Made by a program: the position numbers and the translations under genes | Source of the DNA: Escherichia phage vB_EcoP_HC-25922 | Strand: one strand, 5' to 3' | DNA length: 64,000 bases | Sequence record: OQ555404.1 | Notes under the pieces: generated by a model | The model's input: the letters and a program-made list of their open reading frames with translations, nothing else | Told to the model about the DNA's origin: nothing | Database searches by the model: none | In this document: in pieces, positions 8,493-63,393 of the stretch | Layout of the letters: each line of letters opens with the position of its first letter | Position numbering within the stretch: position 1 is the stretch's first letter

Positions 8493-9271
8493 CAGTAGAT
8501 TCCGTAACTGTTAGTCCTTCGTCGGTTGCAAGCCTTCCGACGGGGGCTACTCAGCAGTTTACAGCTACAGCAGAAATGAGCGACGGCTCCACAAGCACAA
8601 CCGGATTTAATTGGTCCGTTGAGGGCGGTGGGGCTGTTTCTGTTTCTGGGCTATATACTGCACCGAGTACGTCGCAAGAAACCCCAGCAACTATTACGGC
8701 TACTAAAGGTGGTAAGTCAGGTACTGCTACAGTTCTATCTGTTTTTGAACCTGCTACTATTGAAGCCAAAGCTAACATCTCGGGTAAAGTAGGTGGAAGC
8801 ACCACAGCTTTTACTACAATGTTTACAGCAACTAACTCTTCAGCAGAAGATTATTCTTTTGTTGTATCTCCAACGTCAGCAGGAACCGTTAGTGCCGCAG
8901 GAGTTTTAACTTTAAGTAATGATGCAACTGGCACAGTTACTGTTAAAGCAACTCATAAAACTCAGTCAGGTGTTGAAGCCACTATAACCTTTACAGGTGT
9001 TGTTGCTAAAGCAGCTATTACTGGAAAAACCGTCACTGGTAAGGTTGGTAGTGATACTGTTACGTTTGCTGAGTTATTTACAGCAACTAACTCTTCAGCA
9101 GAAGATTACAACTTCGTATCAAGTCCTCCTGAAATGACTTCATCTATCGATGAGAGCACTGGTCTTGTTACCTTGGCTGCTGGCGCTACAGGTGATATCA
9201 CAATTACTGCTACTCACAAAACACAAACGTCTGTGACAGCAACTGCTACGATTACGGTGGTATCAGAGTAA
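8471..9271 (+). CDS. Ig-like (Big_2-type) C-terminal extension of the capsid protein, reached by -1 frameshift
   Basis: -1 frame open from inside the capsid gene; no independent RBS or start; slippery heptamer G_GGA_AAG at 8471-8477; three Ig-like repeats (VTVSPSSVASLPTGATQQFTAT..., two FTATNSSAEDY units). Confidence 0.6.
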   Translation, partial: GKGGSGVTVDSVTVSPSSVASLPTGATQQFTATAEMSDGSTSTTGFNWSVEGGGAVSVSGLYTAPSTSQETPATITATKGGKSGTATVLSVFEPATIEAKANISGKVGGSTTAFTTMFTATNSSAEDYSFVVSPTSAGTVSAAGVLTLSNDATGTVTVKATHKTQSGVEATITFTGVVAKAAITGKTVTGKVGSDTVTFAELFTATNSSAEDYNFVSSPPEMTSSIDESTGLVTLAAGATGDITITATHKTQTSVTATATITVVSE

Positions 9272-10233: not shown

Positions 10234-12594
10234 ATGATCGTTTATAATAACCAAGCACCTGATGCAGTGAATAACGTTGGGCAGTTTGGTGCTACTGAAG
10301 GCTCTATTGGAGCTTATAAGCAAGCCGCAGAATATGCAGCTGACTCCAAATATTGGGCACTGTTAGCAGAGTCTAAGTTTGGTACAATTGATGACCTGAT
10401 CGCTGAAGTAGAACGTTTGTATCAGCAAGGTGTTCTGATGAAGCAGGATATCGAAGATCTTAAGCAGGACTTTAAAGATCAAGATGCTCGTCTGATGAGT
10501 TTGATTGCTCAAACTAACGCAGCGGTATCAGATGCGAATAATGCTGTAGCTCTAATTAATCAGAAACTTATTGAAGTCCAGAACCAGCTTGACGTTCTGT
10601 TAGGAATGTCCGTTGATGTAACCACACTTCCTCCGGGAACTCCGGCTACTGGTTCTTTTAATCCTAACACTGGTGTAATTTCTTTAGGTATCCCAGAAGG
10701 CGAACCCGGAAAGGATGGTTCTGTTAAGGATTTAGACACAGCTCCTACTGGTGTTCCAGAGCTAGGTGACTTGGGTTTCTATGTTGATAAAGATGACAAT
10801 ACCGTCCATAAAACTACTCTAGAGAATATTGCTAACTTAATCCCATCTGTTCGTTCTGTTTCTGTTAATGGGGGACCAGCTCTTGATGGAGAGGTTGCTC
10901 TAACAATCAACAAAGAGACAGTAGGTTTAGGAAATGTTCTGAATGTTGCTCAGTACAGTCGTCAAGAGATTAATGACAAATTTGACAAAACTACCAAGAC
11001 ATACCAATCAAAAGCAGAAGCTGATGCTGACGCTCAGTATCGTCAAGTTGGTGAGAAAGTCTTAGTCTGGGAAGCTACTAAGTATGAGTTCTACACTGTT
11101 GCTGCTAACAAAACATTAACTCCAGTTAAAACTGAAGGTAGAATTCTTACCGTTAACTCCCGTTCTCCAGATTCCAGTGGTAACATTGACATTACCATTC
11201 CAACAGGAAACCCTTCTCTGTATCTTGGTGAGATGGTGATGTTCCCTTACGACCCATCTAAGAATATCTCCTACCCAGGAGTTCTTCCTGCTGATGGTCG
11301 TCTGGTATCAAAAGAATCTGCTTCAGATTTAGGCCCATCCCTTGTCAGCGGACAGCTCCCTGTTGTTTCAGAAACTGAATGGCAATCGGGGGCTAAACAG
11401 TACTTCTCTTGGGGCAAGTTAGCAGACGGTATTACCGATGCGGATTCTACTAATTTTATCAACATTCGACTCCCTGATTGGACTGGAGGGGAGGCAATAA
11501 GAGCACCAGATTCTGATAAAGACTCTCAGTACAATGGGTCTGTACAGGCTCAGAAACCTTATGTTGTTACTGTAAATAACCAAGCTCCTGATGAGATTAC
11601 TGGTAATGTGAACATCTCCAGATCAATTTTAGGTGCTGCTTCTTCTGGAGCAAACTCTGACATTACATCTTTATCTGGACTCACAACACCGCTATCCATC
11701 TCTCAAGGTGGTACTGGAGCTAAAAATGCTGCTAGTGCCCGATCTAACTTGGGGTTGGGGAGTGTTTCCACTCTAGATAACGTCCCTATCGCTAGTGGTG
11801 GGACAGGGGCTGGAGATGCTGCTGGTGCAAGGTTTAATCTTGGGTTAGGTAACTCAGCCACAATGAATACCGGAACTAACAGTGATAATGTTCTTAAGGT
11901 TGGTGATTTTGGAATTGGAAGACCTGACGGCGCTCTTGTTTTTGATACTACTTCACAAGACCAACTTCTTGCTGGACTTGACACTTATGGGTTGTGTGTG
12001 TTTAGGAATAACCAACAAATAGCAGCACCTTGGGACATATGGAACTACTCCTCAAACCTTTTCTTTAGGGCGGGTGACACATACAGTATGATAAGTATTC
12101 CGTTTGAGTCTGCTGGTAAGATAAAAGTTTTTGGTGGTGCATCGGGCAGTGGGTGGAAAACCTCAAGGACGATATACGATACTATAAATACAACTGTTGA
12201 CGTCAATGGCTTTATTAAAGCAGCGTCACCAATAGTTAAGGTATTTCATGACGGAAGTTTTGAAACAAATGAACAATCTGATGGAGTTAGTGTTAAGAAA
12301 ATCTCCACCGGGGTTTATTTAATTTCAGGGTGTCTTGGTCTTAATTCTGATGCAGGATGGGGTGGGGTAGATGGAGGTTTTGAAATCCCAATAGACCGAA
12401 ACAAACAACCTAGAGTCTGGCTGGATTATGAGATTAAAGAAGATGGTTCTATTTTAGTTAAAACTTATCACAGAATCCATCCAACCTCTCCGGTTTTTGC
12501 TAGAAATGAGATAGAAGGTTTCTCTGACGGCGATCCTATTGATATCCCGAGTGATGCTTTTATCTCAGTTCGTGTTGAAATGCCATCCAAATAA
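10234..12594 (+). CDS. tail fibre protein
   Basis: 786 aa; phage tail-fibre repeat motifs (GGTGAKNAASARSNLGLG, GGTGAGDAAGARFNLGLG); GGAG RBS. Confidence 0.6.
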   Translation: MIVYNNQAPDAVNNVGQFGATEGSIGAYKQAAEYAADSKYWALLAESKFGTIDDLIAEVERLYQQGVLMKQDIEDLKQDFKDQDARLMSLIAQTNAAVSDANNAVALINQKLIEVQNQLDVLLGMSVDVTTLPPGTPATGSFNPNTGVISLGIPEGEPGKDGSVKDLDTAPTGVPELGDLGFYVDKDDNTVHKTTLENIANLIPSVRSVSVNGGPALDGEVALTINKETVGLGNVLNVAQYSRQEINDKFDKTTKTYQSKAEADADAQYRQVGEKVLVWEATKYEFYTVAANKTLTPVKTEGRILTVNSRSPDSSGNIDITIPTGNPSLYLGEMVMFPYDPSKNISYPGVLPADGRLVSKESASDLGPSLVSGQLPVVSETEWQSGAKQYFSWGKLADGITDADSTNFINIRLPDWTGGEAIRAPDSDKDSQYNGSVQAQKPYVVTVNNQAPDEITGNVNISRSILGAASSGANSDITSLSGLTTPLSISQGGTGAKNAASARSNLGLGSVSTLDNVPIASGGTGAGDAAGARFNLGLGNSATMNTGTNSDNVLKVGDFGIGRPDGALVFDTTSQDQLLAGLDTYGLCVFRNNQQIAAPWDIWNYSSNLFFRAGDTYSMISIPFESAGKIKVFGGASGSGWKTSRTIYDTINTTVDVNGFIKAASPIVKVFHDGSFETNEQSDGVSVKKISTGVYLISGCLGLNSDAGWGGVDGGFEIPIDRNKQPRVWLDYEIKEDGSILVKTYHRIHPTSPVFARNEIEGFSDGDPIDIPSDAFISVRVEMPSK

Positions 12595-47080: not shown

Positions 47081-47614
47081 TTATACACCCTTAGATGCAA
47101 CTACACCATTACTGCCGTTGTATCGACCCTTCACTGCATAAGAGTCATCACCAGCGTGAGAGTGTTCGAACATAACCATTTGACCAACACGCATCCCAGC
47201 ACGAACTCGTAAGCTATGATTATGGGTAACGTTATGAAATTCAAAGGTTAGTTTACTGCTGTTAAACCCTGCATCAGCCCAACCAGCATGGAGGTGGTTT
47301 AAACCACAACGAGCCATTGAGGAGCGAAGTACAAACAGGCTTGAGATGTTATCTGGAAGGTTAAACTCTTCCATTGAGTGCGCTAAGAAGAATTGCCCCG
47401 GAGTGATAACAATACCATCTTCAGGGATTTTTACTTCTTTCCACTTGAGGTTTTCTTTAGCATCAATGTCAACAATTCCGTCAGCCTGTTCTTCAACAAG
47501 GATAGTATCACCAATACGGATATCCACGCTAGCAGCGTTAACATATTTATGCTCCGCATCTAAAAAGCCATTATCAATAACGCTGTGTAATTCTTGAGAA
47601 CCTAAAAGACTCAT
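47081..47614 (-). CDS. dCTP deaminase (dUTPase superfamily)
   Basis: VDIRIGDT and GWADAGF...LTFEFHN...GQMVMFE match dCTP deaminase/dUTPase signatures. Confidence 0.75.
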   Translation of the reverse strand: MSLLGSQELHSVIDNGFLDAEHKYVNAASVDIRIGDTILVEEQADGIVDIDAKENLKWKEVKIPEDGIVITPGQFFLAHSMEEFNLPDNISSLFVLRSSMARCGLNHLHAGWADAGFNSSKLTFEFHNVTHNHSLRVRAGMRVGQMVMFEHSHAGDDSYAVKGRYNGSNGVVASKGV

Positions 47615-49074
47615 GAGTTTCTGTTTCCTTGTACAGATGATGCCAAATTATTAATCATGTTACGAGCTGTTTCACGAGATAGTGTAACACCTGCTAAGTT
47701 GTTATGAAGCTCACCAGATAGCTCACGAGCAGCAGCTCGAAGTTCTGTACCAAGTGTAGTATCGGAGTGAGCCAAACCATTACGACGACTATAAGGTCGA
47801 GGAGCTTCGTTAGCGTCATTAGCCAATGATGCAAAACCAATATGAGCAGCTTCACGAGCCGCTATAGTTGACACTCGATCTTCCGTAGGGGTTGGCAAAT
47901 CACCAACTTCTACACGTTCTATATCACCAGCACGTAGACCCTGAACGACTGAGCTTACTGTTTCCCATGAACGACGAGAACGCTGTAAATCACCCATTGA
48001 CGGAGAAGAAGCAGGTCGAACAGTTACTCCACCTGTATCATGAGTGACATGCCATGTACGAGTATCCATTCCAGAAGAGCGTGCACTACCAAAACTGCCA
48101 GTGAAAGTGTCACGAGGTGCCATTGTAGGAGGAACTGCGAATCTTTCCTGTTGCCAAGAATCGCGTCTGTTAGTTCCCGGAGTCCAAGGCTGCGTGATTG
48201 CTTCAGCACCTATAGTGGTTAATCCGCTAGACCATTCTGTCTGTAGGTTAACTTCCTCGTCCAGATAACTACGACCCCTTTCCTGAGGAATGTTTAATAT
48301 AGTTTCCATCATCTTCAGGGTATAATGACGACGCTGATTCTGATATAAATTTACACCAGCCATAGGTCCAACTAAATCACTAATCAGGTGAACTTCTGGC
48401 TCACCGAAAGCTCCCATTGCAAGGTGCATATATTCGATAGAACTGCTATAAACTGCAACAGTTGCTTCAGGCCACTTTTTGTGAACATACTTCATTTCAC
48501 GACTAGATACCACAGGAATGTCACGAGTGTATGACATTGCAAACAAACCTTCGTTTGACACATACATGTCATCAAGAGACATGAACCCCTGACAGATCAT
48601 AGGAAAGCGACGGCTTAAAGTATCCATATCCAAAGGTAGATTAATCATCATCTGGATTTTAACTTGATCAATCTCAATTTCCAGAATCTCTTGGAAAGTG
48701 AAAAGTGATTCAGTATAGGTTGTTCCACTGATAGGCTGAACTAGTCGAGATGTAACTTGAAGCCCCTTACTCTCTGTCCAAGACAAGAAGTTGTCAAGGA
48801 ATAGTGCAGCATTACTTACGTTAGCAGGGCTGTTTTCCTGACGAGTGTTCCAACGGAACCCTCCTTGAACTAGGAAGATATCAACATCATTCGGAGTTCG
48901 ATTTTGGAAGAACGTATCACGGATAGCACCACCTGCAATGACAGGATAGATACCATCAGGGACTACGTTATCTCTGATCAGATTGCGAATCAGATCAAGC
49001 CCTACGCTGAGGGCTTCTCCTTCTTGAAGGTTTAATTCAGACAATGGAATCTTAATCATTTCTACATTTTCCAA
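47611..49074 (-). CDS. Pol-beta-superfamily nucleotidyltransferase (CCA-adding enzyme or poly(A) polymerase-like head) with low-complexity C-terminal region
   Basis: AGGAIRD plus 9 aa plus DVD matches the GGxVRD...DxD head motif of tRNA nucleotidyltransferases; C-terminal 200 aa S/T/R/A-rich. Confidence 0.5.
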
Positions 49075-51429: not shown

Positions 51430-51636
51430 TTAGTAAAACGATCGTATTTCTTCCCACACATCATCTTGCAAGTTTCTAAAACCCTGCAAGGTTTGCTTTG
51501 TTCTGTGAATAAATTCTTCAGAGTGCTTATCAGGTGTGAGCATACTGACAAACTTTTCATAGCGATTAATCTTCCACCGCATCTTCAAGTAGTCAGATTC
51601 CAGCTTTCTTAACTTCTGCCTGTCAGTTACTGTCAT
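51430..51636 (-). CDS. hypothetical small protein
   Basis: Internal start ATG 51636. Confidence 0.35.
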   Translation of the reverse strand: MTVTDRQKLRKLESDYLKMRWKINRYEKFVSMLTPDKHSEEFIHRTKQTLQGFRNLQDDVWEEIRSFY

Positions 51637-52054
51637 CCTTCTCACCTGCCAGATATGCTGTCCAGTCACCAGATTCAACCAGAACATCTTGTTCTTCGTC
51701 GATGTGATAAATCCACGCTTCCACAGTTTCACCGCTGTCCAATAATACTGGAATCAGTGTACGCTTGTAAAAGGTGTATGGGTTATCATTACCACGATGA
51801 CCTTCCAGACCGTCATACGGACCTTCCAGACCAGCTTGGGTTGTTTCAAAGACTTCTACACGAACAGGCTTACCGTTGCTGTCATGCTCCAAAGATACAC
51901 TTGGGAAGTATGCTGTGCAATACTGATACAGGTTACAGTTGTTTACTGTCCACCCTTCACCAATAGACACACCACCTGCACGAGCATTGATAGCGTGGTT
52001 GTGTTGACCTTTACGAAGAGAACCATACGTTGCAACTAATACTTTATCAGACAT
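51623..52054 (-). CDS. gamma-glutamyl cyclotransferase-like (AIG2/GGCT family) protein
   Basis: N-terminal VLVATYGSLRKGQHNH matches the YGSL(R/K).G motif of GGCT/AIG2/YtfP enzymes; AAAGGTAA RBS. Confidence 0.65.
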   Translation of the reverse strand: MSDKVLVATYGSLRKGQHNHAINARAGGVSIGEGWTVNNCNLYQYCTAYFPSVSLEHDSNGKPVRVEVFETTQAGLEGPYDGLEGHRGNDNPYTFYKRTLIPVLLDSGETVEAWIYHIDEEQDVLVESGDWTAYLAGEKDDSN

Positions 52055-52058
52055 TACA

Positions 52059-52256
52059 TTACCTTTTGTTTAAAATTTCTTTTGTACAAGAAGTCCCGTT
52101 ACACACGAGAACTGTTTGAGTTATAGAATCGACAACTGTTACATGGCTGCCGCATTGAGTTATGATTTGACCTCTCCCTGAATCTTTAGAGATGCATTCA
52201 TCAGCGGCGATCGCTGACACACTGAATAAGGAGAGGAAAAATAGAATCTTTTTCAT
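52059..52256 (-). CDS. small secreted Cys-rich protein
   Basis: Signal peptide MKKILFFLSLFSVSAIA followed by a Cys-containing 45-aa mature part. Confidence 0.4.
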   Translation of the reverse strand: MKKILFFLSLFSVSAIAADECISKDSGRGQIITQCGSHVTVVDSITQTVLVCNGTSCTKEILNKR

Positions 52257-52262
52257 GGCTGC

Positions 52263-52679
52263 TTACCAATCATGTTGGAAACCAGAATATCCAGAGAAGA
52301 TGATTGATCGGATTGGCTTTTCAGGGAATTCTTCAAAACATCCCTTAATGGCTTTCTTGGTTTCATCAGAAATTGACTCTTTTTCACCAAACCAATATTC
52401 TTCAAAAATATCAGAGAAGATATAAGTTCGGTATCTTTCCAAGTCATAAAAACCTTCCACTGCACTTGTAACAGCTCTACTAATTACACTTGAAGCTACA
52501 GGAAATAAGTCACCGTGTTCCAGAAACAAGCACCAACGATCAAAGAGAGGAATCTCTTCATCTTTCAGAAGACTTTCTAACTCTTCCTTTGCCTCTTTCT
52601 TGTGCTTCTCAAAGAGGTTTTTGGAATACTCTACATCTAAGATACGACTTTTAAACATATCCAGTTTATTATTAACCAT
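52263..52679 (-). CDS. hypothetical protein
   Basis: 138-aa ORF. Confidence 0.45.
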   Translation of the reverse strand: MVNNKLDMFKSRILDVEYSKNLFEKHKKEAKEELESLLKDEEIPLFDRWCLFLEHGDLFPVASSVISRAVTSAVEGFYDLERYRTYIFSDIFEEYWFGEKESISDETKKAIKGCFEEFPEKPIRSIIFSGYSGFQHDW

Positions 52680-52736
52680 TTTACAACCTCTAGTTAAATT
52701 CGAACTAGCCTCCTCTTTCGAAGAGGCTAAAGCAAA

Positions 52737-52922
52737 TTATTCTACTTCGAAGTGTTTGATCACACCAGTCAGTACATCAGATTGGAATGTACCCACTAGC
52801 TCTGTACCTCGGAAGAAGTTAACACTTGTTCCAAGTGCTTCAAAGCGATCTGCTTGAATGTCCAGAGATTGAATATTTCCTTCTGCTGACATTGTACGAA
52901 ACATGATTGTGTATTTATTCAC
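52737..52922 (-). CDS. hypothetical protein
   Basis: 61-aa ORF. Confidence 0.35.
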   Translation of the reverse strand: MNKYTIMFRTMSAEGNIQSLDIQADRFEALGTSVNFFRGTELVGTFQSDVLTGVIKHFEVE

Positions 52923-53161
52923 AGACTTGTTACTCCCTTATCTGCTTGTGCAATTGCGATGATACGCTCAGCACATTCCATTGAATATTTATCACCTCGT
53001 TTGAGGAAGGTGATGATTGCAGAGAACTGATTACCAATCATTCTCTTATTTGTGATACCGAACTCTTCACAGAGTTGGTTGATAGCTTTACGAGAGCCTA
53101 CAATCAGAGGCTCTTTTTCTTCGGTCATTCCACGGCTGATCAAATCTTCGATAGACAACAT
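52919..53161 (-). CDS. hypothetical protein
   Basis: 80-aa ORF. Confidence 0.4.
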   Translation of the reverse strand: MLSIEDLISRGMTEEKEPLIVGSRKAINQLCEEFGITNKRMIGNQFSAIITFLKRGDKYSMECAERIIAIAQADKGVTSL

Positions 53162-53187
53162 TACAAATTCCTTTTTGTTTAATTTAA

Positions 53188-54423
53188 TTACAGAGTTACT
53201 GCTACTTCGCTACCTTCAACATTTACAGACTCTAACTTGCGAGGGTTATGAATCTGGACTGGATTGACCGGAACGTTCCAACCACTGCGGTAGAAGTTAC
53301 GACCATCACAGAACAGGATGACATTGGCAGACATTGCATTCGGTTGCAGGTTGTTGTGGACATGACGGATATTTGCAATCCAGTAGCCACGAGACAAAGT
53401 GTAGCCAGTAGGTGCATTACGAATAGTTTGAGTATTCATCTGACCTTCCAGTTGCATTTCTTCAGGAACCACATCAACTGAATCAATCGGCTGTGCTACT
53501 TGTCCTTCCAGTGCAAAGTTTTCATCATCAGCACTTTCAATATCATCCACTAACTCACCGTCTCCATCTTCAATCGGAGTCTGGTAAACCACTTTATACT
53601 GAGGAGTATAGAGAGGGTTCTGAGCTTTAACAAACTCAAGAATGTTATGACGGTAGGTATCCAGAGTTGTACCAGTCAGGCCCGGTGCTGTATTAACTTC
53701 CAGTACCCACGCTTCTTGACCTTTGGTGATAATATCAACTGCACCGAAATCCAGACCCATTGATTCAACAGCTTTCACTGCATTGATCAGAGAGGCGTCA
53801 TTCGGAGCATCTGTGAAGGAGCTTGAGTAAACCCAGCCAGTGTGGTGATTACGAATATCTTCACGATAGTTAGGGTCTTCGCGATAACCATTGCGACGAA
53901 TCTTCTTCTGAACATAGGTGATTACACCTTTGAACACATGGACACGCCACTCACGACGTGGGCCTTGAATGCCTTTAGTGTACAGTTCAGCTCGACCAAG
54001 ACCATCACCCGGTTCTACAACAACAATGCCCGAACCAGAGTGACCAGTCAGCTCATGGCGCTCATACACAATATTACCAGTGTTTGACCACTCTTGAGCA
54101 GTCTCTTGAACATCTGTGTATTCCACAGTTTTAACACCTGCTTGGTCCATCACGCTGAAAGCACGACGTTTGTTCGCTGCCATATGTAAGGCTGCGGTAC
54201 GGTTAAGGACGGTTGCAGAACCAAAGAATGATTCAGGATAGCGACGGTTCCCGTAGTTAACAACCACATCACCTTCACGAGAACGCCAGCGGCTATTCTC
54301 TGAAAGAAGACCCATCACGTTAGCATTGATGCGTTCATCACGGATAGTATCACTGATAGCAGATACTAGAGCGTTAACAGAATCAGACGGGCCATACGGA
54401 AGAACACGGATACGAGTAGTCAT
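53188..54423 (-). CDS. ATP-grasp family ligase
   Basis: AWVLEVNTAPGL matches the ATP-grasp Mg-binding E-x-N motif (as in RimK, D-Ala-D-Ala ligase); Gly-rich HSGSGIVVV segment; 411 aa with an extra C-terminal region. Confidence 0.6.
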   Translation of the reverse strand: MTTRIRVLPYGPSDSVNALVSAISDTIRDERINANVMGLLSENSRWRSREGDVVVNYGNRRYPESFFGSATVLNRTAALHMAANKRRAFSVMDQAGVKTVEYTDVQETAQEWSNTGNIVYERHELTGHSGSGIVVVEPGDGLGRAELYTKGIQGPRREWRVHVFKGVITYVQKKIRRNGYREDPNYREDIRNHHTGWVYSSSFTDAPNDASLINAVKAVESMGLDFGAVDIITKGQEAWVLEVNTAPGLTGTTLDTYRHNILEFVKAQNPLYTPQYKVVYQTPIEDGDGELVDDIESADDENFALEGQVAQPIDSVDVVPEEMQLEGQMNTQTIRNAPTGYTLSRGYWIANIRHVHNNLQPNAMSANVILFCDGRNFYRSGWNVPVNPVQIHNPRKLESVNVEGSEVAVTL

Positions 54424-54425
54424 TT

Positions 54426-54647
54426 TTAGATACCTTTTAGTTTAAGAATTTCGTTACGACAGGATTGAATTTTAGCTTCGATTGCCCAATACTCAGCGAA
54501 CATTTCGTCTTCTTGGGCATCACTTGGAGAGTCGATTAAGTTAAAAGCAAACGGATACAGCTTTCGCTGCTCCGTTACCAGTTGTTGAAGTCGGAGTTGT
54601 TGATACTCCAGCATTGTCAGGTGAGGCTTAGCTCCCTTGCTTGACAT
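54426..54647 (-). CDS. hypothetical small protein
   Basis: ORF between the ATP-grasp and amidotransferase genes; start uncertain (TTG 54656, ATG 54647 or 54614). Confidence 0.3.
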   Translation of the reverse strand: MSSKGAKPHLTMLEYQQLRLQQLVTEQRKLYPFAFNLIDSPSDAQEDEMFAEYWAIEAKIQSCRNEILKLKGI

Positions 54648-54861
54648 GAGGCTCAACTTTAATCCCCTTCATTTTAACATAGTCAGCCAACACGTTATTG
54701 ATAACGGTTGGAAAAGGGATTTCTACTGGAGAGTCAACCAGCTTCCCAATACCTTCTTGCATCCACTTCTGGATTGCTCGGAGGTTATCACATCCTGTGC
54801 TTGTCATCGGAATACGGCGGGTAGTTACCACGTTATCCAACATCAGTTTACGAACTTCCAT
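54628..54861 (-). CDS. hypothetical small protein
   Basis: 77 aa; AAGAGG RBS. Confidence 0.4.
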   Translation of the reverse strand: MEVRKLMLDNVVTTRRIPMTSTGCDNLRAIQKWMQEGIGKLVDSPVEIPFPTVINNVLADYVKMKGIKVEPHVKQGS

Positions 54862-54872
54862 AACTATACCTC

Positions 54873-56906
54873 TTAGTGTTTACCTTTACAGTAATCTGAA
54901 TTACAGATCACCCTGTTTTCTTTGTTCAGTGAGCAAGTTTCTGCATCACGCCACGGAATTTGTTTATAACAGACTGCACAAAACCCAATTGAAGTCCAGA
55001 GGGCTTTTGTAAACTCAGCTGTTCGTTGTCCATCGTAACTGACAACTGTTTTTCGGAGAGAGGTTGACTTTTCTGGAAATGTCTCCGCTTTCTCAGCGGG
55101 TACCTCCTTTGGGGCATTCTTTGGACCATAAACAGAGATGGCATAAGTATCACCACCACGTTTTTCCAAATACGAATTAGGAACATCTGCAAGTGTGATG
55201 TCCCCTGAACGTTTTGCTGAGCTGACCATTACAATCATACGGCTAAGCATACGTTCATCAACACGAACAGCTACTTCAGGACGACGTGGGTTGGTTGTGT
55301 CTACTGCTTTAGTCCAAATATAACCTTCAGATAGAGTAACATTCTTTACTTTATCTTTGATTTCTTTGGAGCAGATATAACAAACGTCTTCACCACGAAG
55401 TTTACTCATTTCGTTGTCAAACTCGAAATCAGTCTTGACTTCACCACAGATAGCACATACACCCAAAGGCACATCTTCTTCCTCTTCAGAGGTTTTAGAT
55501 AACGCTTCGAAGCATTCTGGATGCCAGTATGCCTGATAAGCAAACACAGCCTTACGAGCATCTTTCCAGTCAATGTGCTTATCACAACCACCACAGTCAC
55601 CATGAGAGTGAGATTCCCAGAACTTACGAGTGACTTCTACACCATTCTTAGTGATGAAGGAGTCCTCTGCATCAAAAGGGATATCATCATCAAAATCAGC
55701 AGTAGTGCTTTGAGGCTCCTTATCTGTAGCATCAACAAACAGCCCTGAAGTTAGTACGAGGCGAATCATACTGTCCACTTCGGAGATACAAGCAATCGTC
55801 CCGCGATATACTACCTTTGGGTTTTCAAGAGCCTTAAGATATTCATCTTTGGCTACGTTGTGAACATCCCCTTCGACATACTCTTGAGCTTTATCATCGT
55901 AGATGTAACCAACCATCTTACCACGATCTGTGTTGTTATAAGCATGGAACTCGTGAGGAATAATATCCACACGACCATCACGACGATAAGGAAGACCACG
56001 ATCGGCAGCCAGTTTGTTCTGGTCTTCAATCGCTTTACGACGACGAATGTCTCCGCTTGTCACGCCGGGCTTGTCGTCTTTGTTTCCGTAAATGTCGCTT
56101 GTGCTGCTGCTTGATTTGTTTGTCTGTTGGTTCTGATAAAGAGAGGAGTTCGAGTAATAGCCGCCCCAGCGACTCGTTACCGTAAAAACCGGAAGCGTGT
56201 GCTCCACCTCTTGAACCAGAGTCATACGACTGTTAGACACATCAAAGATATACTCAGTTCCCACTTTACATTCGAAGTGGTCATTGATACGGTTCTTATG
56301 GGACTTAGAACGCTCTAAAATCCACATAAGCATAGCTTCTTCAGAAGCTCCAAACCAATCCAAACCACAGCGGGCTAGGTGGAAAGGACGCTCATCATTA
56401 CGGATAATGTGAAGTGTGTTGTCTTTAGCATCATGCCAAATCAAAGTGAATGCACCATCCAGTTTTTGGATAGTCTCTGCTGCTCCAATGGTGTTAATTG
56501 AGTGGCAGATGTTTTCACTATCAACTTCGAAACGCTTACTGTCAGGAAGGAGATCTTGATCTAACAGGGTTCCATTATGAACCAGAGTAATATCCCCGTG
56601 AGTAAATGGGTGAGCATTTCGAGCATTGACAGCCCCACGAGTGGCATGTCGGCTGTGACCAACAATCCACGAAGGAGGAACTACGTAGTTCGTAAGCCCT
56701 TTGGTAATATTTGTATATTCTGTCTGGAGCATAAAAGCATAAGAAGGAAGAGCTTCTTTATAAGAGAAGACTTGCTTTTCACCTTTACGCTGACCAAACA
56801 CACCAGTTGAGTGCTGTCCACGGAAAACACCAGCATACAGAAGTTGGTTGAAAATGTCCAAATCTGCTGAGGTCATGTTGCCGCCAGCTAATACGATACC
56901 ACAAAT
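54873..56906 (-). CDS. PurF-type class II (Ntn) glutamine amidotransferase domain fused to a Cys-rich C-terminal domain; probable ATT start
   Basis: In-frame upstream of the track ATG lies K-I-CGIVLAGGNM, matching the PurF N-terminus MCGIVGIAGVM; also FRGQHSTGVF, VGHSRHATRG...HPF, LVHNGTL; AGGTGG RBS 8 nt before ATT 56904-56906; C-terminal CxxC clusters. Confidence 0.7.
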   Translation of the reverse strand: MCGIVLAGGNMTSADLDIFNQLLYAGVFRGQHSTGVFGQRKGEKQVFSYKEALPSYAFMLQTEYTNITKGLTNYVVPPSWIVGHSRHATRGAVNARNAHPFTHGDITLVHNGTLLDQDLLPDSKRFEVDSENICHSINTIGAAETIQKLDGAFTLIWHDAKDNTLHIIRNDERPFHLARCGLDWFGASEEAMLMWILERSKSHKNRINDHFECKVGTEYIFDVSNSRMTLVQEVEHTLPVFTVTSRWGGYYSNSSLYQNQQTNKSSSSTSDIYGNKDDKPGVTSGDIRRRKAIEDQNKLAADRGLPYRRDGRVDIIPHEFHAYNNTDRGKMVGYIYDDKAQEYVEGDVHNVAKDEYLKALENPKVVYRGTIACISEVDSMIRLVLTSGLFVDATDKEPQSTTADFDDDIPFDAEDSFITKNGVEVTRKFWESHSHGDCGGCDKHIDWKDARKAVFAYQAYWHPECFEALSKTSEEEEDVPLGVCAICGEVKTDFEFDNEMSKLRGEDVCYICSKEIKDKVKNVTLSEGYIWTKAVDTTNPRRPEVAVRVDERMLSRMIVMVSSAKRSGDITLADVPNSYLEKRGGDTYAISVYGPKNAPKEVPAEKAETFPEKSTSLRKTVVSYDGQRTAEFTKALWTSIGFCAVCYKQIPWRDAETCSLNKENRVICNSDYCKGKH

Positions 56907-56983
56907 TTTCTAATCCACCTGAAGGGTAAACCCTTTCATCTAATTAACCTTTAAATGCGCCCTGTATAAGAGCGCCCGTTGTG

Positions 56984-58084
56984 TTACAGCAGTCGTTCTA
57001 ATTGCATTTCCAGATGGTCTGGAATATAACCAGTGACGTTATCATCACTGCTACCTGATTCACGCATCAATGCAAACATGTGACGAATTTCACGAACCGT
57101 TGCGATTCGAGTGCTTTCAATCTGAGGGGTGTAGTAGGTCATGATCTCTTCGTAGACACTGTTGGCATTACCGCGCACATATCCCAAGAAACCATAGAAG
57201 TCATTCATATCACGTAAGTTGATAAGGACTTCACCATCAGGGCCAGTCTGTTGCACACGAACACGACCAACCAAAGTTACAGATTGCTCACGACAGAAGA
57301 GAATATCACGAGCAAGACGATACCCTTCAGTGAGATCACTGTCTCTTGGAGTATAGTCTAGGGGTAGATGTTGAATCATAGGAGCGAAGCGCAGCTCATT
57401 CAACTTCTCAACATAAGCTTCATTGTCTAAATCTGCATATTCAACAGCCAGTTTCTTGAGAACCAAGAAGCGGTTGACCAGATTCAGAAGTTGGCTCTTT
57501 TTCCACTTCGGCTCTGAGATACGGAACTCAACAGAACCAAATTGAGATAGAGGCAAAAGATTAAGGGAGGTATATTTATCCCAGCTATTAACAAGAGAGT
57601 GGAAGAAAGCTTCCCCGTCTCGGTTGAACGCTGACGAAGCATTCATAACTTGTGCTTGAACGACAGCAAAAGCTGGACAGAAGTTGCTACGATAGCGATG
57701 GTATCCAGAACATTTGAACATCATCTTTTCATAGAACGTCCATCCAAGAATAACTTTCTTAAGGATATTACTATCAGCGTCACGCATATCCATATGAACG
57801 TGAGTGGAGCAGCGCCAAGTTCCCTCGGCTCCAGAATCCTGTACTGCTTCACTCAGATTGTTAATAGCACGAAGTAATTCTTCACCGTTGTAAGGTCGTG
57901 CACATACTAATTCACAACCATCACGAAGAGAGCCATCTTCAGTACAAACCCACATATCAGCGTCAATGTCAGTTGTACCTTCGACTTCTAACTCAATACC
58001 AACACCACACTGAAAAGCAATACTTGGATGCGGTTCAGATAAGCGAGGGTTACGGTATCCAAAAACTTGTGCTACGGTTGTCAT
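56984..58084 (-). CDS. glutamine-synthetase-like carboxylate-amine ligase (amidoligase, YbdK/GCS2-like)
   Basis: GIELEVEG (E.E motif), DGSLRDGCELV and STHVHMDM (H.H motif) in the order seen in GS-like COOH-NH2 ligases. Confidence 0.55.
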   Translation of the reverse strand: MTTVAQVFGYRNPRLSEPHPSIAFQCGVGIELEVEGTTDIDADMWVCTEDGSLRDGCELVCARPYNGEELLRAINNLSEAVQDSGAEGTWRCSTHVHMDMRDADSNILKKVILGWTFYEKMMFKCSGYHRYRSNFCPAFAVVQAQVMNASSAFNRDGEAFFHSLVNSWDKYTSLNLLPLSQFGSVEFRISEPKWKKSQLLNLVNRFLVLKKLAVEYADLDNEAYVEKLNELRFAPMIQHLPLDYTPRDSDLTEGYRLARDILFCREQSVTLVGRVRVQQTGPDGEVLINLRDMNDFYGFLGYVRGNANSVYEEIMTYYTPQIESTRIATVREIRHMFALMRESGSSDDNVTGYIPDHLEMQLERLL

Positions 58085-58707
58085 AATGATTCCACCAACT
58101 CTACATTATATGATGACAGGTCTGAAGAAATATGCTTGAACTTCTCCAGAAGGTTTAAAGATTGACGACCATTGTCGCCATAACCAGCTTCAAGAAGCAC
58201 GTTTCCAACGTAAGCCCCTTTGTAATAAACTTTTCCATCGACAGGATTGATATAGATGAAACGAGTAACCAACCCTTCAAACTCTGGATTAAACAGGTTG
58301 TACACCAAATCACCCGGAATCGAACGTCCGAGAGAAGGTGGAGTACCACGAAGTTTATTCCCCATCAAGCCTTTAGCTCGCTGACGAACAGGGTTGATAT
58401 GGGTCCAGCTCACCATGTTATTGCCATGCTGAAGGTATCCTACATCTGGAGACTCCAGAATGAGGCTGTGATCAAACACTGGGATATTACTAACAATCTG
58501 ACGTTCAAACTGACCTTCGGAGTTTTTAGTCCAGCGCTCCGCCTCAAACACTAAAGACATTTCAGCGTCGTGTGAGTAGTCGTCGATATCAAAGTTACCT
58601 TGCTGACGAACATCAAGCACATATAGAGGGAGGTTTTTACCATCAGGTGATCGCTGAGCAATCCATGTTCCACAATAATAGTGTTGAAAATCTCTTAACA
58701 AGCTCAC
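58081..58707 (-). CDS. hypothetical protein
   Basis: 208-aa ORF within the ligase locus. Confidence 0.45.
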   Translation of the reverse strand: MSLLRDFQHYYCGTWIAQRSPDGKNLPLYVLDVRQQGNFDIDDYSHDAEMSLVFEAERWTKNSEGQFERQIVSNIPVFDHSLILESPDVGYLQHGNNMVSWTHINPVRQRAKGLMGNKLRGTPPSLGRSIPGDLVYNLFNPEFEGLVTRFIYINPVDGKVYYKGAYVGNVLLEAGYGDNGRQSLNLLEKFKHISSDLSSYNVELVESL

Positions 58708-58716
58708 AATATCACC

Positions 58717-59523
58717 TTATACAATCTGGAGTTTAGAGGAGAATTTATCCGCTTCTTTAACATCGTTACTGTTGATGATGTTGTGAAGCTTTTCAATTGG
58801 AAGGCGAGAGTGAAGTGACATCAATACTTCCATATCACAGCCTTGAACAACCTTATCAACTTGCTCATAAACAAACTTGCGGGTTGACTTCTCGCCAATC
58901 CAGAAGTTAGAAAGAGAACGATATTCAATACCGTAATCTTTGTAGCGAATGGCAGAAGCCTTTCCGTATAACTCTTTACGACGAGTATCTTTATCCATGA
59001 TCACAGCTGGCAAGGACAGGAAGTAATCACACAACACACCCAACATCATTTGAGTCTGACGACTAATTTCCAGCGTACCAGTGACGCCAAGGTGAACATG
59101 ACCACCAGCAGTACGCAGACCTTTGTCTGTCGCTACTGGAGATGGGTTTTTCTGACCAGTGAAGGCGTTGAAATCAGGAGTACAACCAAATACAAAGGCT
59201 GACGGATGGAAAGATTCCATCTCTTCTGAAGTGAACACATGAGAGCTAATCCCAAGTGCTGCCTCCATGCCACGTTCATTGAGAACTTTGTTAGTCAGAT
59301 CAATACCACGCTGAATGTTATCATTAAACGCTTCAAACCCTTTCTGTGGGTTAATATCGAACTCGGCCAGAACGTTGTCTTCTTGAAGACGAACATCAGG
59401 GGCCAGATCAATTTTGTTGTCTTTAGAGCAGCCCAGCTTACCAGCCACAGAGGTGATAATACCAGAAGCAGTACGAACAAACATTTCAGGGTCAGAACCA
59501 ATAAGGAAAGCACGCTTAGTCAT
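58717..59523 (-). CDS. second, divergent GS-like ligase-like protein
   Basis: Start ATG 59523 with GGAG RBS; AFLIGSDPEMFV and GGHVHLGV resemble the G.E.E and H.H ligase motifs, but divergent. Confidence 0.4.
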   Translation of the reverse strand: MTKRAFLIGSDPEMFVRTASGIITSVAGKLGCSKDNKIDLAPDVRLQEDNVLAEFDINPQKGFEAFNDNIQRGIDLTNKVLNERGMEAALGISSHVFTSEEMESFHPSAFVFGCTPDFNAFTGQKNPSPVATDKGLRTAGGHVHLGVTGTLEISRQTQMMLGVLCDYFLSLPAVIMDKDTRRKELYGKASAIRYKDYGIEYRSLSNFWIGEKSTRKFVYEQVDKVVQGCDMEVLMSLHSRLPIEKLHNIINSNDVKEADKFSSKLQIV

Positions 59524-60466
59524 TGTAATACTCCACGAGTTCATCAAAAAGGGAAACAACACGAGCACCAGCTTCTTCTGGTGTCATTGAGGAAGGTACT
59601 GCTTGCATCAGACGTTCGATAAAACTTCGAACAGTAATTCTGTCCATACGCTGATCTAATACTTCTCGCTTGTGACCTGCACAAGTTGACCAGAGACGTA
59701 ACCACTCACTCATACTCTCATAATGGTCAGGGTCTTGGTCACGACGACGTGCCATACGACGGAGAACTCCATCATTATGGTTTCGTACATAACCATCTCG
59801 GTTGTCATCAACACCGAATACATTCTGAACCCATACGTTTTCAGAAAATTCATCAGTGGTGCAAATTAATGGCAGAAATGCAATTGCACTCATGTCGCCA
59901 TCAAAATAAGTCGCTGCTGACTCATCGGTTGAGCCTACGTCATTACTATAACACCAGCGACCAAAGAAGTTACGACTTAAACCAGCTAAGCGTAGAGCTA
60001 AACCGATTCGTTGTCGCTTAAGCAACTCTTCCTTGTCTTGTACGCCTTCCTGAAGGAACTCCATTCCATTAAAATCACCATCCAAATAGCTACGGATGGT
60101 CATTAGTCCAGTAAACACCTTGTCTGCTGGATGGTTTCGAAGGTTCACGGCAATGGAGTTCACCGAAGTGACAGAGAACATATCTTTATAGCAAGACATT
60201 GAGTTAAAAATATCTGTTGCTTCAACTAAAGCTCTTTCGATATCTTTAGCTGGCACGCCATAAAAATTGTGAGGCCAGAAGTTAATAACTTCAATTTCTG
60301 AAGTTCTATCACGAAGGCTTGTTCGGTTACGACTTTCACCGTTAATGTCTGTAACAGAATACATGTGCATACAGTTAAAAGTACCAAAGCAAGCTCTTCC
60401 TTTGAACACTGACTCACCGAAATCCTCTGCCGATGTTACCGGAGCAATCGATGCGGAGATTGACAT
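59516..60466 (-). CDS. hypothetical protein
   Basis: 316-aa ORF. Confidence 0.45.
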   Translation of the reverse strand: MSISASIAPVTSAEDFGESVFKGRACFGTFNCMHMYSVTDINGESRNRTSLRDRTSEIEVINFWPHNFYGVPAKDIERALVEATDIFNSMSCYKDMFSVTSVNSIAVNLRNHPADKVFTGLMTIRSYLDGDFNGMEFLQEGVQDKEELLKRQRIGLALRLAGLSRNFFGRWCYSNDVGSTDESAATYFDGDMSAIAFLPLICTTDEFSENVWVQNVFGVDDNRDGYVRNHNDGVLRRMARRRDQDPDHYESMSEWLRLWSTCAGHKREVLDQRMDRITVRSFIERLMQAVPSSMTPEEAGARVVSLFDELVEYYND

Positions 60467-60474
60467 ATTCGCCT

Positions 60475-61692
60475 CTATTTATTAAAGAATAGTTTTTCCA
60501 TAATGGTTTCCCACTCTTCTGAGGGGAGGGTTGAGAACCCGTTTCCGTGAAGCCTGTTTGTCATGCAACTAATAATATTGTACATGTTGTAGCTTCGGGT
60601 GGATTCTGTTCCATTGTTCCAGTTATAACCGAAAACAATTTTATCGAAGGAGGTTTTATCCGTAGTTACTTCTCGGATAAACTCAACCAAGAGCGATTTC
60701 TCTGTGATGACCGCACGTTCACCATCTGGCAGATTGCAATACTGAGGAAGAAGGATTGGTAAGAACATCGAATTGTTCACTCGACAATCACGAACACCTT
60801 CACTGCGATAGATTAGGCTTGAGAAGTCTTCATCACGCAGGTGTCCTTCACCTTCAGTGTATTCACACTGTCGCCACTTGGTCTGGCGAGGCTCAATCAT
60901 TGTACTACCAACGCCTACTGTATACAGAGACGCTTGGAAAATACATGAATCGTAATCATTCCCTGTTAAAGCAACTTGCTCGTTGCCGAACACATCCACT
61001 GAAGAGTTAATCAGTCGGCTGAATGCAAGAGAGGCTAAAGGGGACCAGCCTTTCTTATACATCTTGTTCAGCATTTCATACACAGCAGATTTTTCATCAT
61101 CTGTATAGAATGTACGATTCAGCATCAGATAGAACAGAGCGCGATCAGCAGGACAACCATCAGTACAAACACCCATGAATCCTACTTCATGCCATACCAG
61201 ACATGAGTCAGAATCTTTATCCATGAATGCTTCAAAGGCTTCCATTACAGCCCTGTCAGTAACATCAGGACGGTTGTTTTCTTCTGCCCATGTTTCTACA
61301 TGAGAAGGAGGACGAGGGTCTCCATTCTCCACCCCTTCGCGGAAATATTGAGTGGTAATAGGCTTTTTATCACCATAACGTTTTACACCATAAGCGGGAA
61401 GGTGTGTACCAGAGTTCCAGATGTACTTAATTTCGGACATAGGCATCATGTTTTCGAGAACGTTCTCTTCAGCAGTGCCTTGACGAACCATCATATTTTC
61501 ACTCCACACCTTAATGCGGATATTCCAGCCGTAGTTGCTGTCATACGTGTTATAATAATCAGGATCACCATCTTCATCTTCATCATAATCACCACCCTGA
61601 TAGTAACCTGCTTTCAGGAAACCATAACAAGGAGGCCAAACAGTTACAACGTCTTCTGATTCTTTCCAGCTTTGAAGTGTTACAGGGAACAT
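60475..61692 (-). CDS. hypothetical protein
   Basis: Start ATG 61692 with AAGAGGT RBS (the track 61791 start overlaps the upstream gene); 406 aa with acidic DYDEDEDGDPDYY segment. Confidence 0.45.
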   Translation of the reverse strand: MFPVTLQSWKESEDVVTVWPPCYGFLKAGYYQGGDYDEDEDGDPDYYNTYDSNYGWNIRIKVWSENMMVRQGTAEENVLENMMPMSEIKYIWNSGTHLPAYGVKRYGDKKPITTQYFREGVENGDPRPPSHVETWAEENNRPDVTDRAVMEAFEAFMDKDSDSCLVWHEVGFMGVCTDGCPADRALFYLMLNRTFYTDDEKSAVYEMLNKMYKKGWSPLASLAFSRLINSSVDVFGNEQVALTGNDYDSCIFQASLYTVGVGSTMIEPRQTKWRQCEYTEGEGHLRDEDFSSLIYRSEGVRDCRVNNSMFLPILLPQYCNLPDGERAVITEKSLLVEFIREVTTDKTSFDKIVFGYNWNNGTESTRSYNMYNIISCMTNRLHGNGFSTLPSEEWETIMEKLFFNK

Positions 61693-61702
61693 TTTTACCT
61701 CT

Positions 61703-62065
61703 TTACTCTGATACCAGAAGGCCCAGAGATTTGCGAATGTAGTCAATACTACGGAAGTTTCGATAGTTCTCTTGGAAGCGCATCTTTTCAAATTCAGCTT
61801 CCTGAAGTTCTAACTCTGCCGCTTTATATCCCGATAAAGCTAAACTCACCACATCCTGAGGCAAGACATTACGACGGCGAATAAGATATTTATTCGCTTT
61901 TAGTTTACCTTGTGCACGAGCCATTTTGGCCTTTGCCGCCTTGATACCATGAGAAATCCAAAGCAGTTGCTGTTTCAGATCTTCCTCATCCATACCACCT
62001 AAGTCATTTGCTACTTTATGAAGCGTAGACAGGTTCACATGGCCTTTAATGGGGCGTAGGTTCAT
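61703..62065 (-). CDS. hypothetical protein
   Basis: 120 aa; AGGAGAAG RBS. Confidence 0.4.
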   Translation of the reverse strand: MNLRPIKGHVNLSTLHKVANDLGGMDEEDLKQQLLWISHGIKAAKAKMARAQGKLKANKYLIRRRNVLPQDVVSLALSGYKAAELELQEAEFEKMRFQENYRNFRSIDYIRKSLGLLVSE

Positions 62066-62229: not shown

Positions 62230-62470
62230 ACAACCTCTTCTTTGAACTTAAAAAAGGACTCTCCTAAGAGAGCCAAGCTTTAAGGCCAATTAAATAGATA
62301 TCACCCAATATCTGTGGATAACCTGCTCTTAAAATATTCTATCCGACGGATGTTCGAGGATTATTCCTCTCCCTAGCATCGGCCCCATACGGGAAAGATT
62401 AAATTAAGTTTAGGTTAGTTGAGCCAGAATAGCTCACATAGCCCTCTGATACTCACAAGGGCTATAGATG

Positions 62471-62979: not shown

Positions 62980-63393
62980 TTAAACAACGAATTGGAACGC
63001 TTCGTATCCAAACTTGTATAAGAAATCGTGTTTGAACTTTACTACACGACCACGATCGCGGAAAGCTTTCAGGCGACTGCTGAACCCAACCATTGGCTCA
63101 GGGTCAATAGGGCTACGAATCTTCATAGCTATAGAGTGCAGCTTGAAGCGTTTACCAGTGCTACAGGCCATCATCACATACTCCATACGAGTAGTCCAGA
63201 TGTTGAGCACCATGCTTGTTTTCTCCGCTGACCAACCAGTCTTGCGGGCGATTTCTTTATGGACATTAAGCTCCAAAGGAAGAGGGAATTGCTTGTTGAA
63301 TGAAGCCGGATATAGCTTGACCAGAAGGTCAATGTTTTCTTTATACGTTAAGTAAGCCAATTTCTTGCTTACGTTAGGGAATTTCCCAGACAT
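62980..63393 (-). CDS. ProQ/FinO-domain-like RNA-binding protein (putative)
   Basis: LVKLYPASFNKQFPLPLELNVHKEIARKTGWSAEKTSMVLNIWTTRMEY resembles the ProQ N-terminal FinO domain pattern. Confidence 0.45.
   Translation of the reverse strand: MSGKFPNVSKKLAYLTYKENIDLLVKLYPASFNKQFPLPLELNVHKEIARKTGWSAEKTSMVLNIWTTRMEYVMMACSTGKRFKLHSIAMKIRSPIDPEPMVGFSSRLKAFRDRGRVVKFKHDFLYKFGYEAFQFVV

Follow-up and report, generated by a model that had tools for sequence, protein, structure and literature searches.

Gene content and order of the module

We analysed a 64,000-nucleotide stretch of Escherichia phage vB_EcoP_HC-25922 (OQ555404.1), hereafter the window, in which a cluster of minus-strand genes encodes two carboxylate-amine ligases (Lig1 and Lig2), an ATP-grasp ligase, a class-II (Ntn) glutamine amidotransferase (GAT), a gamma-glutamyl(amine) cyclotransferase and three further proteins designated U1, U2 and U3. 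The segment 51000-62000 of the window aligns along its whole length with the Escherichia phages IME267 and 4E8 (99.2% identity), and matches Bas87, SU7 and EK010 at 96-98%. The phage belongs to the group of Suseptimavirus (Gordonclarkvirinae), in which SU7 is classified, that is, to the phiEco32-like podophages. The cluster is the phiEco32-type amidoligase module, which occurs in phiEco32-like and many other phages and adjoins the DNA replication genes. It is gene-for-gene orthologous to phi32_77 to phi32_88, in identical order, with linked genes for the class-II amidotransferase, the ATP-grasp enzyme and the AIG2/GGACT protein arranged as in phiEco32, and its products show 80% identity to phiEco32 for Lig2 (phi32_86), 63% for the ATP-grasp ligase and 76% for a homologue of gp79 (phi32_79). 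No essential difference from the phiEco32 module was observed, and near-identical copies are present in IME267, 4E8, SU7 and Bas87.

As a computational prediction the module has been known since 2009. Its prediction by comparative genomics is credited in later papers to Iyer, Abhiman, Burroughs and Aravind (2009), and later phage genome papers label the cluster a "putative peptidoglycan modification module", several of them listing the same gene set. The Pfam description of PF14395, the family of Lig2, reads "Phage phiEco32-like COOH.NH2 ligase-type 2", i.e. the family is named after phiEco32. The original prediction for this DNA, made from the letters without database searches, thus overstated the novelty of the cluster, since exactly this module had been described from phiEco32. 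What is added here is a five-gene core that includes U3, the paralogy and fold of U1 and U2, the universal fusion of a zinc ribbon to the amidotransferase, the ATT start codon of GAT and the gp79 gene embedded in the cluster.

In the direction of transcription, the likely upstream boundary of the unit is a terminator-like hairpin at 62257..62274 on the minus strand (GGCTCTCTTAGGAGAGTC then CTTTTTT); a terminator is annotated at the equivalent position in SU7. The genes that follow, all on the minus strand, are U0 (61703..62065), a small basic protein with no assigned function (phrog_11370, homologue of phi32_89); U1 (60475..61692; 405 aa, phrog_13063, phi32_88); U2 (59516..60466; 316 aa, phrog_13102, phi32_87); Lig2 (58717..59523); U3 (58081..58707; 208 aa, phrog_4877, phi32_85); Lig1 (56984..58084; phi32_84); GAT (54873..56906; phi32_83); two small open reading frames (ORFs), one for a conserved protein of 77 aa (54628..54861; phi32_82) and one for a protein of about 73-76 aa (54426..54656; phi32_81); and the RimK-like ATP-grasp ligase (53188..54423; phi32_80). 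The original prediction had placed the five enzyme genes on this strand at the coordinates given here and below, together with three large proteins of unknown function, and all of these ORFs were confirmed. Downstream of the ATP-grasp gene come the gp79 homologue (52919..53161; 80 aa), a small ORF, a variable accessory gene for a DUF7020 protein (52263..52679), a 65-aa ORF with a signal-peptide-like N-terminus, MKKILFFLSLFSVSAIA (52059-52256), and the GGACT/AIG2-like, YtfP-like cyclotransferase (51623..52054; phi32_77). After another small ORF there are genes for the primase/helicase, the DNA polymerase exonuclease, a putative nucleotidyltransferase and dCTP deaminase. Genes of the unit overlap or are separated by 2-26 nt; only the gaps preceding the amidotransferase (77 nt) and DUF7020 (57 nt) are wider. 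No membrane-spanning or signal-like segment was found in any of the enzymes or in U1 to U3. The sole evidence of expression comes from the published proteomics of the related phage SU10, in which the ATP-grasp, amidotransferase and YtfP-like proteins were detected.

Catalytic residues and domain architecture of the enzymes

Pfam and PHROG searches upheld the families that had been proposed for the five enzymes (GGACT, ATP-grasp, class-II GATase, Amidoligase_2 and COOH-NH2_lig). The active-site residues named in the original prediction, i.e. Cys1 of the amidotransferase, the E.E and H.H motifs of the two ligases and E-x-N of the ATP-grasp enzyme, are conserved in distant homologues, conservation being judged in homologues down to 20-35% identity. 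Lig2 matches COOH-NH2_lig (PF14395) with an E-value of 2e-8 and 34.2 bits against a cut-off of 25, and the residues D11, E13, Q47, D49, E54, H142, H144, E200 and R202 are invariant among its homologues. Lig1 matches Amidoligase_2 (PF12224) with 34.2 bits against a cut-off of 22; its invariant residues are E31, E33, E35, D50, R54, E58, R91, H95, H97, E119, R130, E186 and R188. The two ligase genes lie on the same strand with only U3 between them, and their products are only distantly related to each other. Carboxylate-amine ligases of the glutamine-synthetase (GS) fold include glutamine synthetase itself, GshA/EgtA, PuuA and PafA. Sequence searches of the PDB with Lig1, Lig2, U1, U2 and U3 found no solved relative.

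The ATP-grasp ligase matches PHROG 2599 with an E-value of 3.6e-170 and the Pfam RimK family weakly (E 7e-4). Its NCBIfam scores, 36.7 for MptN against a cut-off of 350 and 27.8 for rimK_fam against 143, do not reach family level. RimK-family enzymes are alpha-L-glutamate ligases, and the nearest ATP-grasp profiles here, MptN, RimK and CofF, all score far below their cut-offs. The residues for Mg and ATP are invariant: S129, G130 and G132 in the glycine-rich loop, D230, E242 and N244. A RimK-like core (residues 1-265) is followed by an acidic linker and a small C-terminal domain. The linker, in the C-terminal third of the protein (53188-53650), is of low complexity and contains a DDENFAL motif conserved in the window, phiEco32 and 7-11; the small conserved domain after it is phrog_20552, and the shorter Pseudomonas versions have neither linker nor domain. 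In several Lig1 homologues an acidic tail ends in an aromatic residue. The linker motif and these tails may be docking motifs.

A mechanical list of ORFs puts the start of GAT at ATG 56876. The true start was found at 56904-56906 on the minus strand, in agreement with the original prediction, and is ATT, an initiation codon seldom used. The sequence reads ...TAG AAA ATT TGT GGT ATC..., with the Shine-Dalgarno sequence AGGTGG 7 nt upstream and an in-frame TAG two codons upstream of the ATT, and the product begins (M)CGIVLAGG, so that this start places the nucleophile Cys directly after the initiator. The ATT codon is common to SU7, Bas87 and phiEco32, IME180 has ATC, and four distant homologues have ATG-Cys (MCG[IL]V); Cys1 is present, as (M)CG[IL]V, in 9/9 amidotransferases compared. 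Since initiation factor 3 (IF3) discriminates against ATT starts, this codon may set a low or regulated expression of GAT.

The Ntn domain of GAT (about residues 1-225) matches GATase_6 (PF13522, E 2.6e-14) and is followed by a middle region and a Cys-rich C-terminus. In an alignment with GlmS (1xff) the equivalents of R73, N98, G99 and D123 are kept (in HSRHATRG, VHNG and EVDSE); in GlmS these residues bind the alpha-carboxylate and alpha-amino groups of glutamine. The description of the protein as PurF-type holds for the N-terminal Ntn domain only, because the best profile matches are GlmS-like and all are far under the family cut-offs: against the complete amidotransferase families (PurF/GlmS/AsnB) the whole protein scores 19-40 bits where 267-418 are required. 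A match to EgtC is weak. A Pfam scan of residues 226-677 found no acceptor or synthase domain (phosphoribosyltransferase, SIS isomerase or synthetase), as had been predicted, and gave only weak LIM/zinc-finger matches. The C-terminus is made up of CxxC...CxxC zinc-ribbon modules, three of them in the Gordonclarkvirinae, and a ribbon of this kind ends the amidotransferase in every lineage compared.

The cyclotransferase matches GGACT (PF06094) with an E-value of 8.9e-16 and 59 bits against 22.8. Its conserved residues are Y10, G11 and L13 (YG[ST]L), the catalytic acid E67 ahead of V-[FWY] (Asp in 7-11), and D81, L83, E84 and G85 (LD-x-LEG). Enzymes of this family release an amine and 5-oxoproline from a gamma-glutamylamine.

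The combination of a GS-fold ligase, an ATP-grasp enzyme and a cyclotransferase mirrors the making and degradation of glutathione by GshA/GshB/ChaC and gamma-glutamyl-polyamine metabolism. The product could be a diffusible small molecule that is not an envelope component, such as a gamma-glutamyl peptide, a glutathione-like thiol, a gamma-glutamyl-polyamine or a modified nucleotide, which would shift host redox or polyamine pools or counter a host defence. The phage also encodes a thioredoxin and a Dps-like protein, and all module proteins look cytoplasmic, as such a role would have it. Yet no profile match to GshA, GshB, PuuA or Gss was obtained, there was no match to known defence-system models (PADLOC), the host already makes glutathione, and the need for three ligases and U3 would be left unexplained. 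We consider a diffusible product of this type unlikely, but a serious alternative all the same.

Distribution of the core and its partner proteins

A scan of IMG/VR with the Lig2 alignment gave 530 related loci, and 80 viral loci were fetched for co-conservation counts. Profile searches found the amidotransferase in 79 of the 80, Lig1 in 78 and the ATP-grasp ligase in 74. The genes share a strand and, for the most part, their order, and where one was missed the locus mostly lay at the end of a contig. U3 was found by iterative search in 75 loci and lies between Lig2 and Lig1 in all of them (75/75). These counts define a universal core, Lig2-U3-Lig1-GAT-ATP-grasp, the co-conservation of which is far beyond chance. 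That the genes belong together, as originally supposed, is supported by their co-conservation (74-79/80 loci) and by their arrangement in the window, where they overlap or follow one another closely on a single strand, with the terminator-like site (62274-62257) upstream. The cyclotransferase, present within 10 kb in 30-31 of the 80 loci, is a frequent accessory gene.

The core order is shared by phiEco32, Salmonella phage 7-11, Aeromonas phage 4_4572, Pseudomonas phage PhiCHU (and UFV-P2), IME180 (Zobellviridae) and metagenomic phages of 90-100 kb; in HP1 the order of the module is rearranged. Lig1 matches 95 Escherichia/Shigella phage records, and 96 records contain the primase/helicase at 80% identity or more (the counts were compared, the sets not intersected); nearly every sequenced member of the Gordonclarkvirinae seems to carry the module. 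The modules of LUZ24-like phages (Bruynoghevirus/Vicosavirus) and of Zobellviridae have the same five-gene core but differ from that of the window in their shorter amidotransferase (417-517 aa) and ATP-grasp protein (about 250-296 aa), and the genes at their U1/U2 positions are not detectably related to U1 and U2 by sequence. In the LUZ24-like modules the cyclotransferase gene adjoins that of the primase/helicase. Kuravirus EC.W2-6 (PP445229.1, locus L009) was considered as a natural deletion of the six upstream genes (U0 to Lig1, about 8 kb) and was found not usable: the record, labelled complete, is exactly 67,000 bp long and opens within the final 73 codons of the amidotransferase gene (1-219), a length and start that probably reflect an artefact of assembly or linearisation. 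In the 90-100 kb relatives (loci L011, L012 and L013, positions 7600-9250) the module is preceded by genes for TerD, a vWA-TerF-like protein, TerC, phosphoribosyl pyrophosphate (PRPP) synthetase and NAPRTase, and Aeromonas phage 4_4572 and 7-11 have genes for PRPP synthetase and nicotinamide phosphoribosyltransferase near the module.

U1 and U2 share the motifs PAD[RK]..LM..R, W.Q and G[HY].R[DN]. Iterative searches seeded with gp106 or gp107 of 7-11, or with gp137 of the Aeromonas phage, merge the two proteins and return two matches per locus in 12 loci. A bridging sequence, the distant protein P0102, connects U1 and U2, in that it was picked up with the U1 profile and can be aligned with that of U2 (E 4e-5), and the predicted fold of U1 matches two different proteins in each of the phages GAP52 and LAh_8. 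A direct comparison of the two profiles with hhalign gave an E-value of only 0.08. On the strength of the intermediate sequences and of the structure, and not of the direct profile comparison, U1 and U2 are recognised as tandem paralogues. Their confidently predicted fold has no counterpart among the PDB structures. U0 was found in 8 of the 80 loci, the same number as U1, and, as judged by sequence, U0, U1 and U2 do not extend beyond the enterobacterial and Aeromonas lineages.

The composition of the core also bears on the question of whether the target is a protein. The ligases could modify a host or phage protein with a short peptide or with glutamate (gamma to a lysine or, like RimK, alpha to a C-terminus), with the amidotransferase and the cyclotransferase as trimmers or erasers and U3 as an adaptor presenting the target, in a system analogous to pupylation or polyglutamylation. 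Pupylation (PafA/Dop) and the RimK polyglutamylation of S6 resemble the window system in that it has two GS-fold enzymes, a pair that recalls PafA and Dop, and a RimK-like ATP-grasp enzyme of a family that modifies protein C-termini. Moreover, the canonical substrate of GGACT is epsilon-(gamma-glutamyl)lysine, zinc ribbons are always attached to the amidotransferase, and U3 is modelled as small barrels of a peptide-binding type with a conserved arginine loop. A protein target is favoured by U3 and the zinc ribbons, both of which look suited to binding macromolecules, and papers of the Aravind group suggest protein targets for related phage ligases. The differences from pupylation and RimK modification are that no Pup-like tag gene is present here, that Lig1 and Lig2 are only distantly related and that the RimK score is far below the cut-off. 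The sole conserved small protein, the 77-aa product of 54628..54861, was found in 19 of the 80 loci (in locus L011 the gene at the same position carries DUF7195), and its C-terminus is variable in length and not conserved; it was therefore rejected as a Pup-like or LysW-like tag or carrier. Only R108, Q109 and G113 are conserved in the U3 loop across 69 homologues, and a lysine in this loop as modification site was likewise rejected, none being invariant. No target was identified, and a high-resolution study of Bruynoghevirus virions says nothing of a modification, which is a weak negative. Taken with these objections, the tagging of proteins is a serious alternative, though we lean against it.

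Neighbouring genes and the nature of the product

The gp79 homologue lies inside the cluster, between the ATP-grasp and cyclotransferase genes. The gp79 protein of phiEco32, the product of a middle gene, has been characterised: it displaces sigma70 and is an activator of the phage's own sigma factor (PMC12276001, PMC8948821). Its presence here indicates that the region is a block of middle genes and not a pure pathway operon, and the gp79 homologue is probably not part of the pathway. The DUF7020 gene and the 65-aa ORF constitute an insertion of about 0.6 kb (52059-52679) that is present in IME267, 4E8 and ECBP2 and absent from SU7 and Bas87; DUF7020 is found at the equivalent relative position in distant 90-kb phages (L011 and L012). 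SU7 carries an HNH homing endonuclease gene between Lig2 and U2 (positions 10908-11378 of its locus, L001), which the window lacks, and UFV-P2 has one between the amidoligase and amidotransferase genes; the module seems to have been invaded repeatedly by homing endonucleases. Just upstream of the unit, a 137-aa ORF (62980-63393, minus strand) gave a sub-threshold match to ProQ/FinO (E 1.3e-5; 25.5 bits against 27), and its product may be an RNA-binding protein. On the other side, beside the dCTP deaminase gene, a 487-aa ORF (47611-49074, minus strand) is called "nucleotidyltransferase" in relatives and has a GG..RD...DxD-like N-terminus; it had no Pfam or NCBIfam match.

The authors of the BASEL collection linked the pair formed by the nucleotidyltransferase and the dCTP deaminase to a possible DNA modification, and the module itself could serve to decorate phage DNA or a nucleotide precursor with a group derived from an amino acid. 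This would explain the restriction resistance of the Gordonclarkvirinae, which are reported to be remarkably resistant without a known modification pathway. The window keeps 29 EcoRV, 9 EcoRI, 6 EcoKI and 103 EcoP1 sites, so resistance through loss of sites was rejected for these four enzymes. In several lineages the module is located directly upstream of the primase/helicase gene, and the zinc ribbons and the basic loop of U3 may bind nucleic acid. The adjacency to replication genes is, however, a matter of shared ancestry, the primase/helicase proteins of the window and PhiCHU being 45% identical. Among the neighbours scanned, which did not comprise every ORF, and in the Bas87 annotation there was no gene for a hydroxymethylase, a base kinase (5-hydroxymethyldeoxyuridine kinase) or a DpdA/TGT-like, QueC-type or glycosylase-like protein, and the phage encodes an ordinary ThyX along with the dCTP deaminase. 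Indirect evidence comes from other phages. Of 16 restriction enzymes, 11 cut the DNA of the LUZ24-like phage U17, which carries the module, and native nanopore sequencing of Rembedalsseter, which is closely related to the module-carrying UFV-P2 and was itself not checked for the module, revealed only nicks. For the LUZ24-type nick motif TACTRTGMC the window has 2 sites where 2.2 are expected; the motif is thus not enriched, and a link to it was rejected. All considered, DNA modification is very improbable.

The window as a whole strongly avoids certain sites: there is 1 CCWGG (Dcm) site against 85 expected, 127 GATC against 257 and no PstI site against 18. Thirteen of the palindromic hexamers do not occur at all, and the total for hexamers of this kind is 626 where 925 would be expected. 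Enrichment was seen for CAGCAG (104 against 36).

The reading that we favour, at a probability of about 0.4, is that of a cytoplasmic, ATP-driven pathway that would build, and then trim, a short amide-linked product around glutamate, with a small metabolite or envelope precursor as acceptor. We commit to a pathway of this kind because every characterised family that the proteins resemble (RimK/MptN/CofF, GlmS, EgtC and GGACT) handles glutamyl amides. The dedicated build-and-trim pathway of the original prediction stands to the extent that the families all make or break glutamyl amide bonds; the gp79 regulator inside the cluster means that it does not stand as purely one pathway. Lig1, Lig2 and the RimK-like ATP-grasp enzyme would each convert a carboxylate to an acyl-phosphate and couple it to an amine, to give up to three amide bonds. 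The Ntn amidotransferase would bind glutamine or a gamma-glutamyl amide and could either deliver ammonia to one of the ligases, turning a carboxylate into a carboxamide in the manner of MurT/GatD or asparagine synthetase, or, like EgtC, hydrolyse a gamma-glutamyl group. In phages that have it, the GGACT enzyme would remove gamma-glutamyl from an amine as 5-oxoproline. U3, which does not look like an enzyme, could be a partner without catalytic activity that serves to keep together the ligases, the amidotransferase or the acceptor, and U1 and U2 could be lineage-specific accessory enzymes. The acceptor would most likely be a small cytoplasmic metabolite or an envelope precursor, for example UDP-MurNAc-peptide, as in the published prediction. 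That prediction is of a modified peptidoglycan stem peptide, proposed to serve superinfection exclusion or the preparation of the wall for lysis; it is chemically coherent.

Several known systems combine similar parts. In the amidations by MurT/GatD and asparagine synthetase, as apparently here, a glutamine-hydrolysing domain works with an ATP-dependent enzyme that activates a carboxylate, and the glutamine-binding residues are conserved in GAT. MurT/GatD differs in that GatD is a class-I enzyme and MurT has the Mur-ligase fold, whereas the window has a class-II amidotransferase with zinc ribbons and putative GS-fold ligases. Ergothioneine synthesis (EgtA and EgtC) and butirosin synthesis (the ATP-grasp enzyme BtrJ and the cyclotransferase BtrG) offer an analogy in which the same families add and later remove a gamma-glutamyl group. 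They differ in that the proteins of the window show no sequence-level membership of these enzymes, and the window lacks the remaining genes of the two pathways.

The following points weigh against a pathway to a small metabolite or envelope precursor. No experimental function of the module or of any homologue was found in the literature searched, as the original prediction had supposed for the phage version. The glutamine-synthetase fold of Lig1 and Lig2 is drawn from Pfam families and motifs, and with the ATP-grasp enzyme so far below the RimK and MptN cut-offs its amino-acid specificity is not assignable. The cyclotransferase is present in only about 40% of the loci, so trimming by this enzyme is not universal. 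The zinc ribbons of the amidotransferase are more typical of macromolecule-binding proteins, and the SH3/Tudor-like small barrels predicted for U3 are likewise typical of macromolecule binding. Finally, we know of no demonstrated benefit of peptidoglycan remodelling in a short lytic cycle. The ribbons and barrels would suit the marking of a macromolecule, in which the ligases, guided by U3 and the zinc ribbons, would write a glutamate-derived tag on a host or phage protein or on phage DNA, to be trimmed by GAT and the cyclotransferase. We regard such marking as rather unlikely; if true, the mark could underlie the restriction resistance of the Gordonclarkvirinae, with U1 and U2 as enzymes whose fold is new.

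Among enzyme clusters still lacking an assigned function, the module, with its 530 related loci in IMG/VR, is one of the most widespread in virulent phages that infect Gram-negative bacteria, and is also carried by therapeutic LUZ24-like Pseudomonas phages. The five-gene core including U3, together with the U1/U2 pair, tells experimenters which genes to delete or co-express, and since isolates that infect K-12 exist (BASEL phages Bas86-94), the genetics is possible. Whatever the kind of its product, be it a metabolite, a precursor of the envelope or a tag on a macromolecule, it would represent a new mechanism of phage-host interaction.

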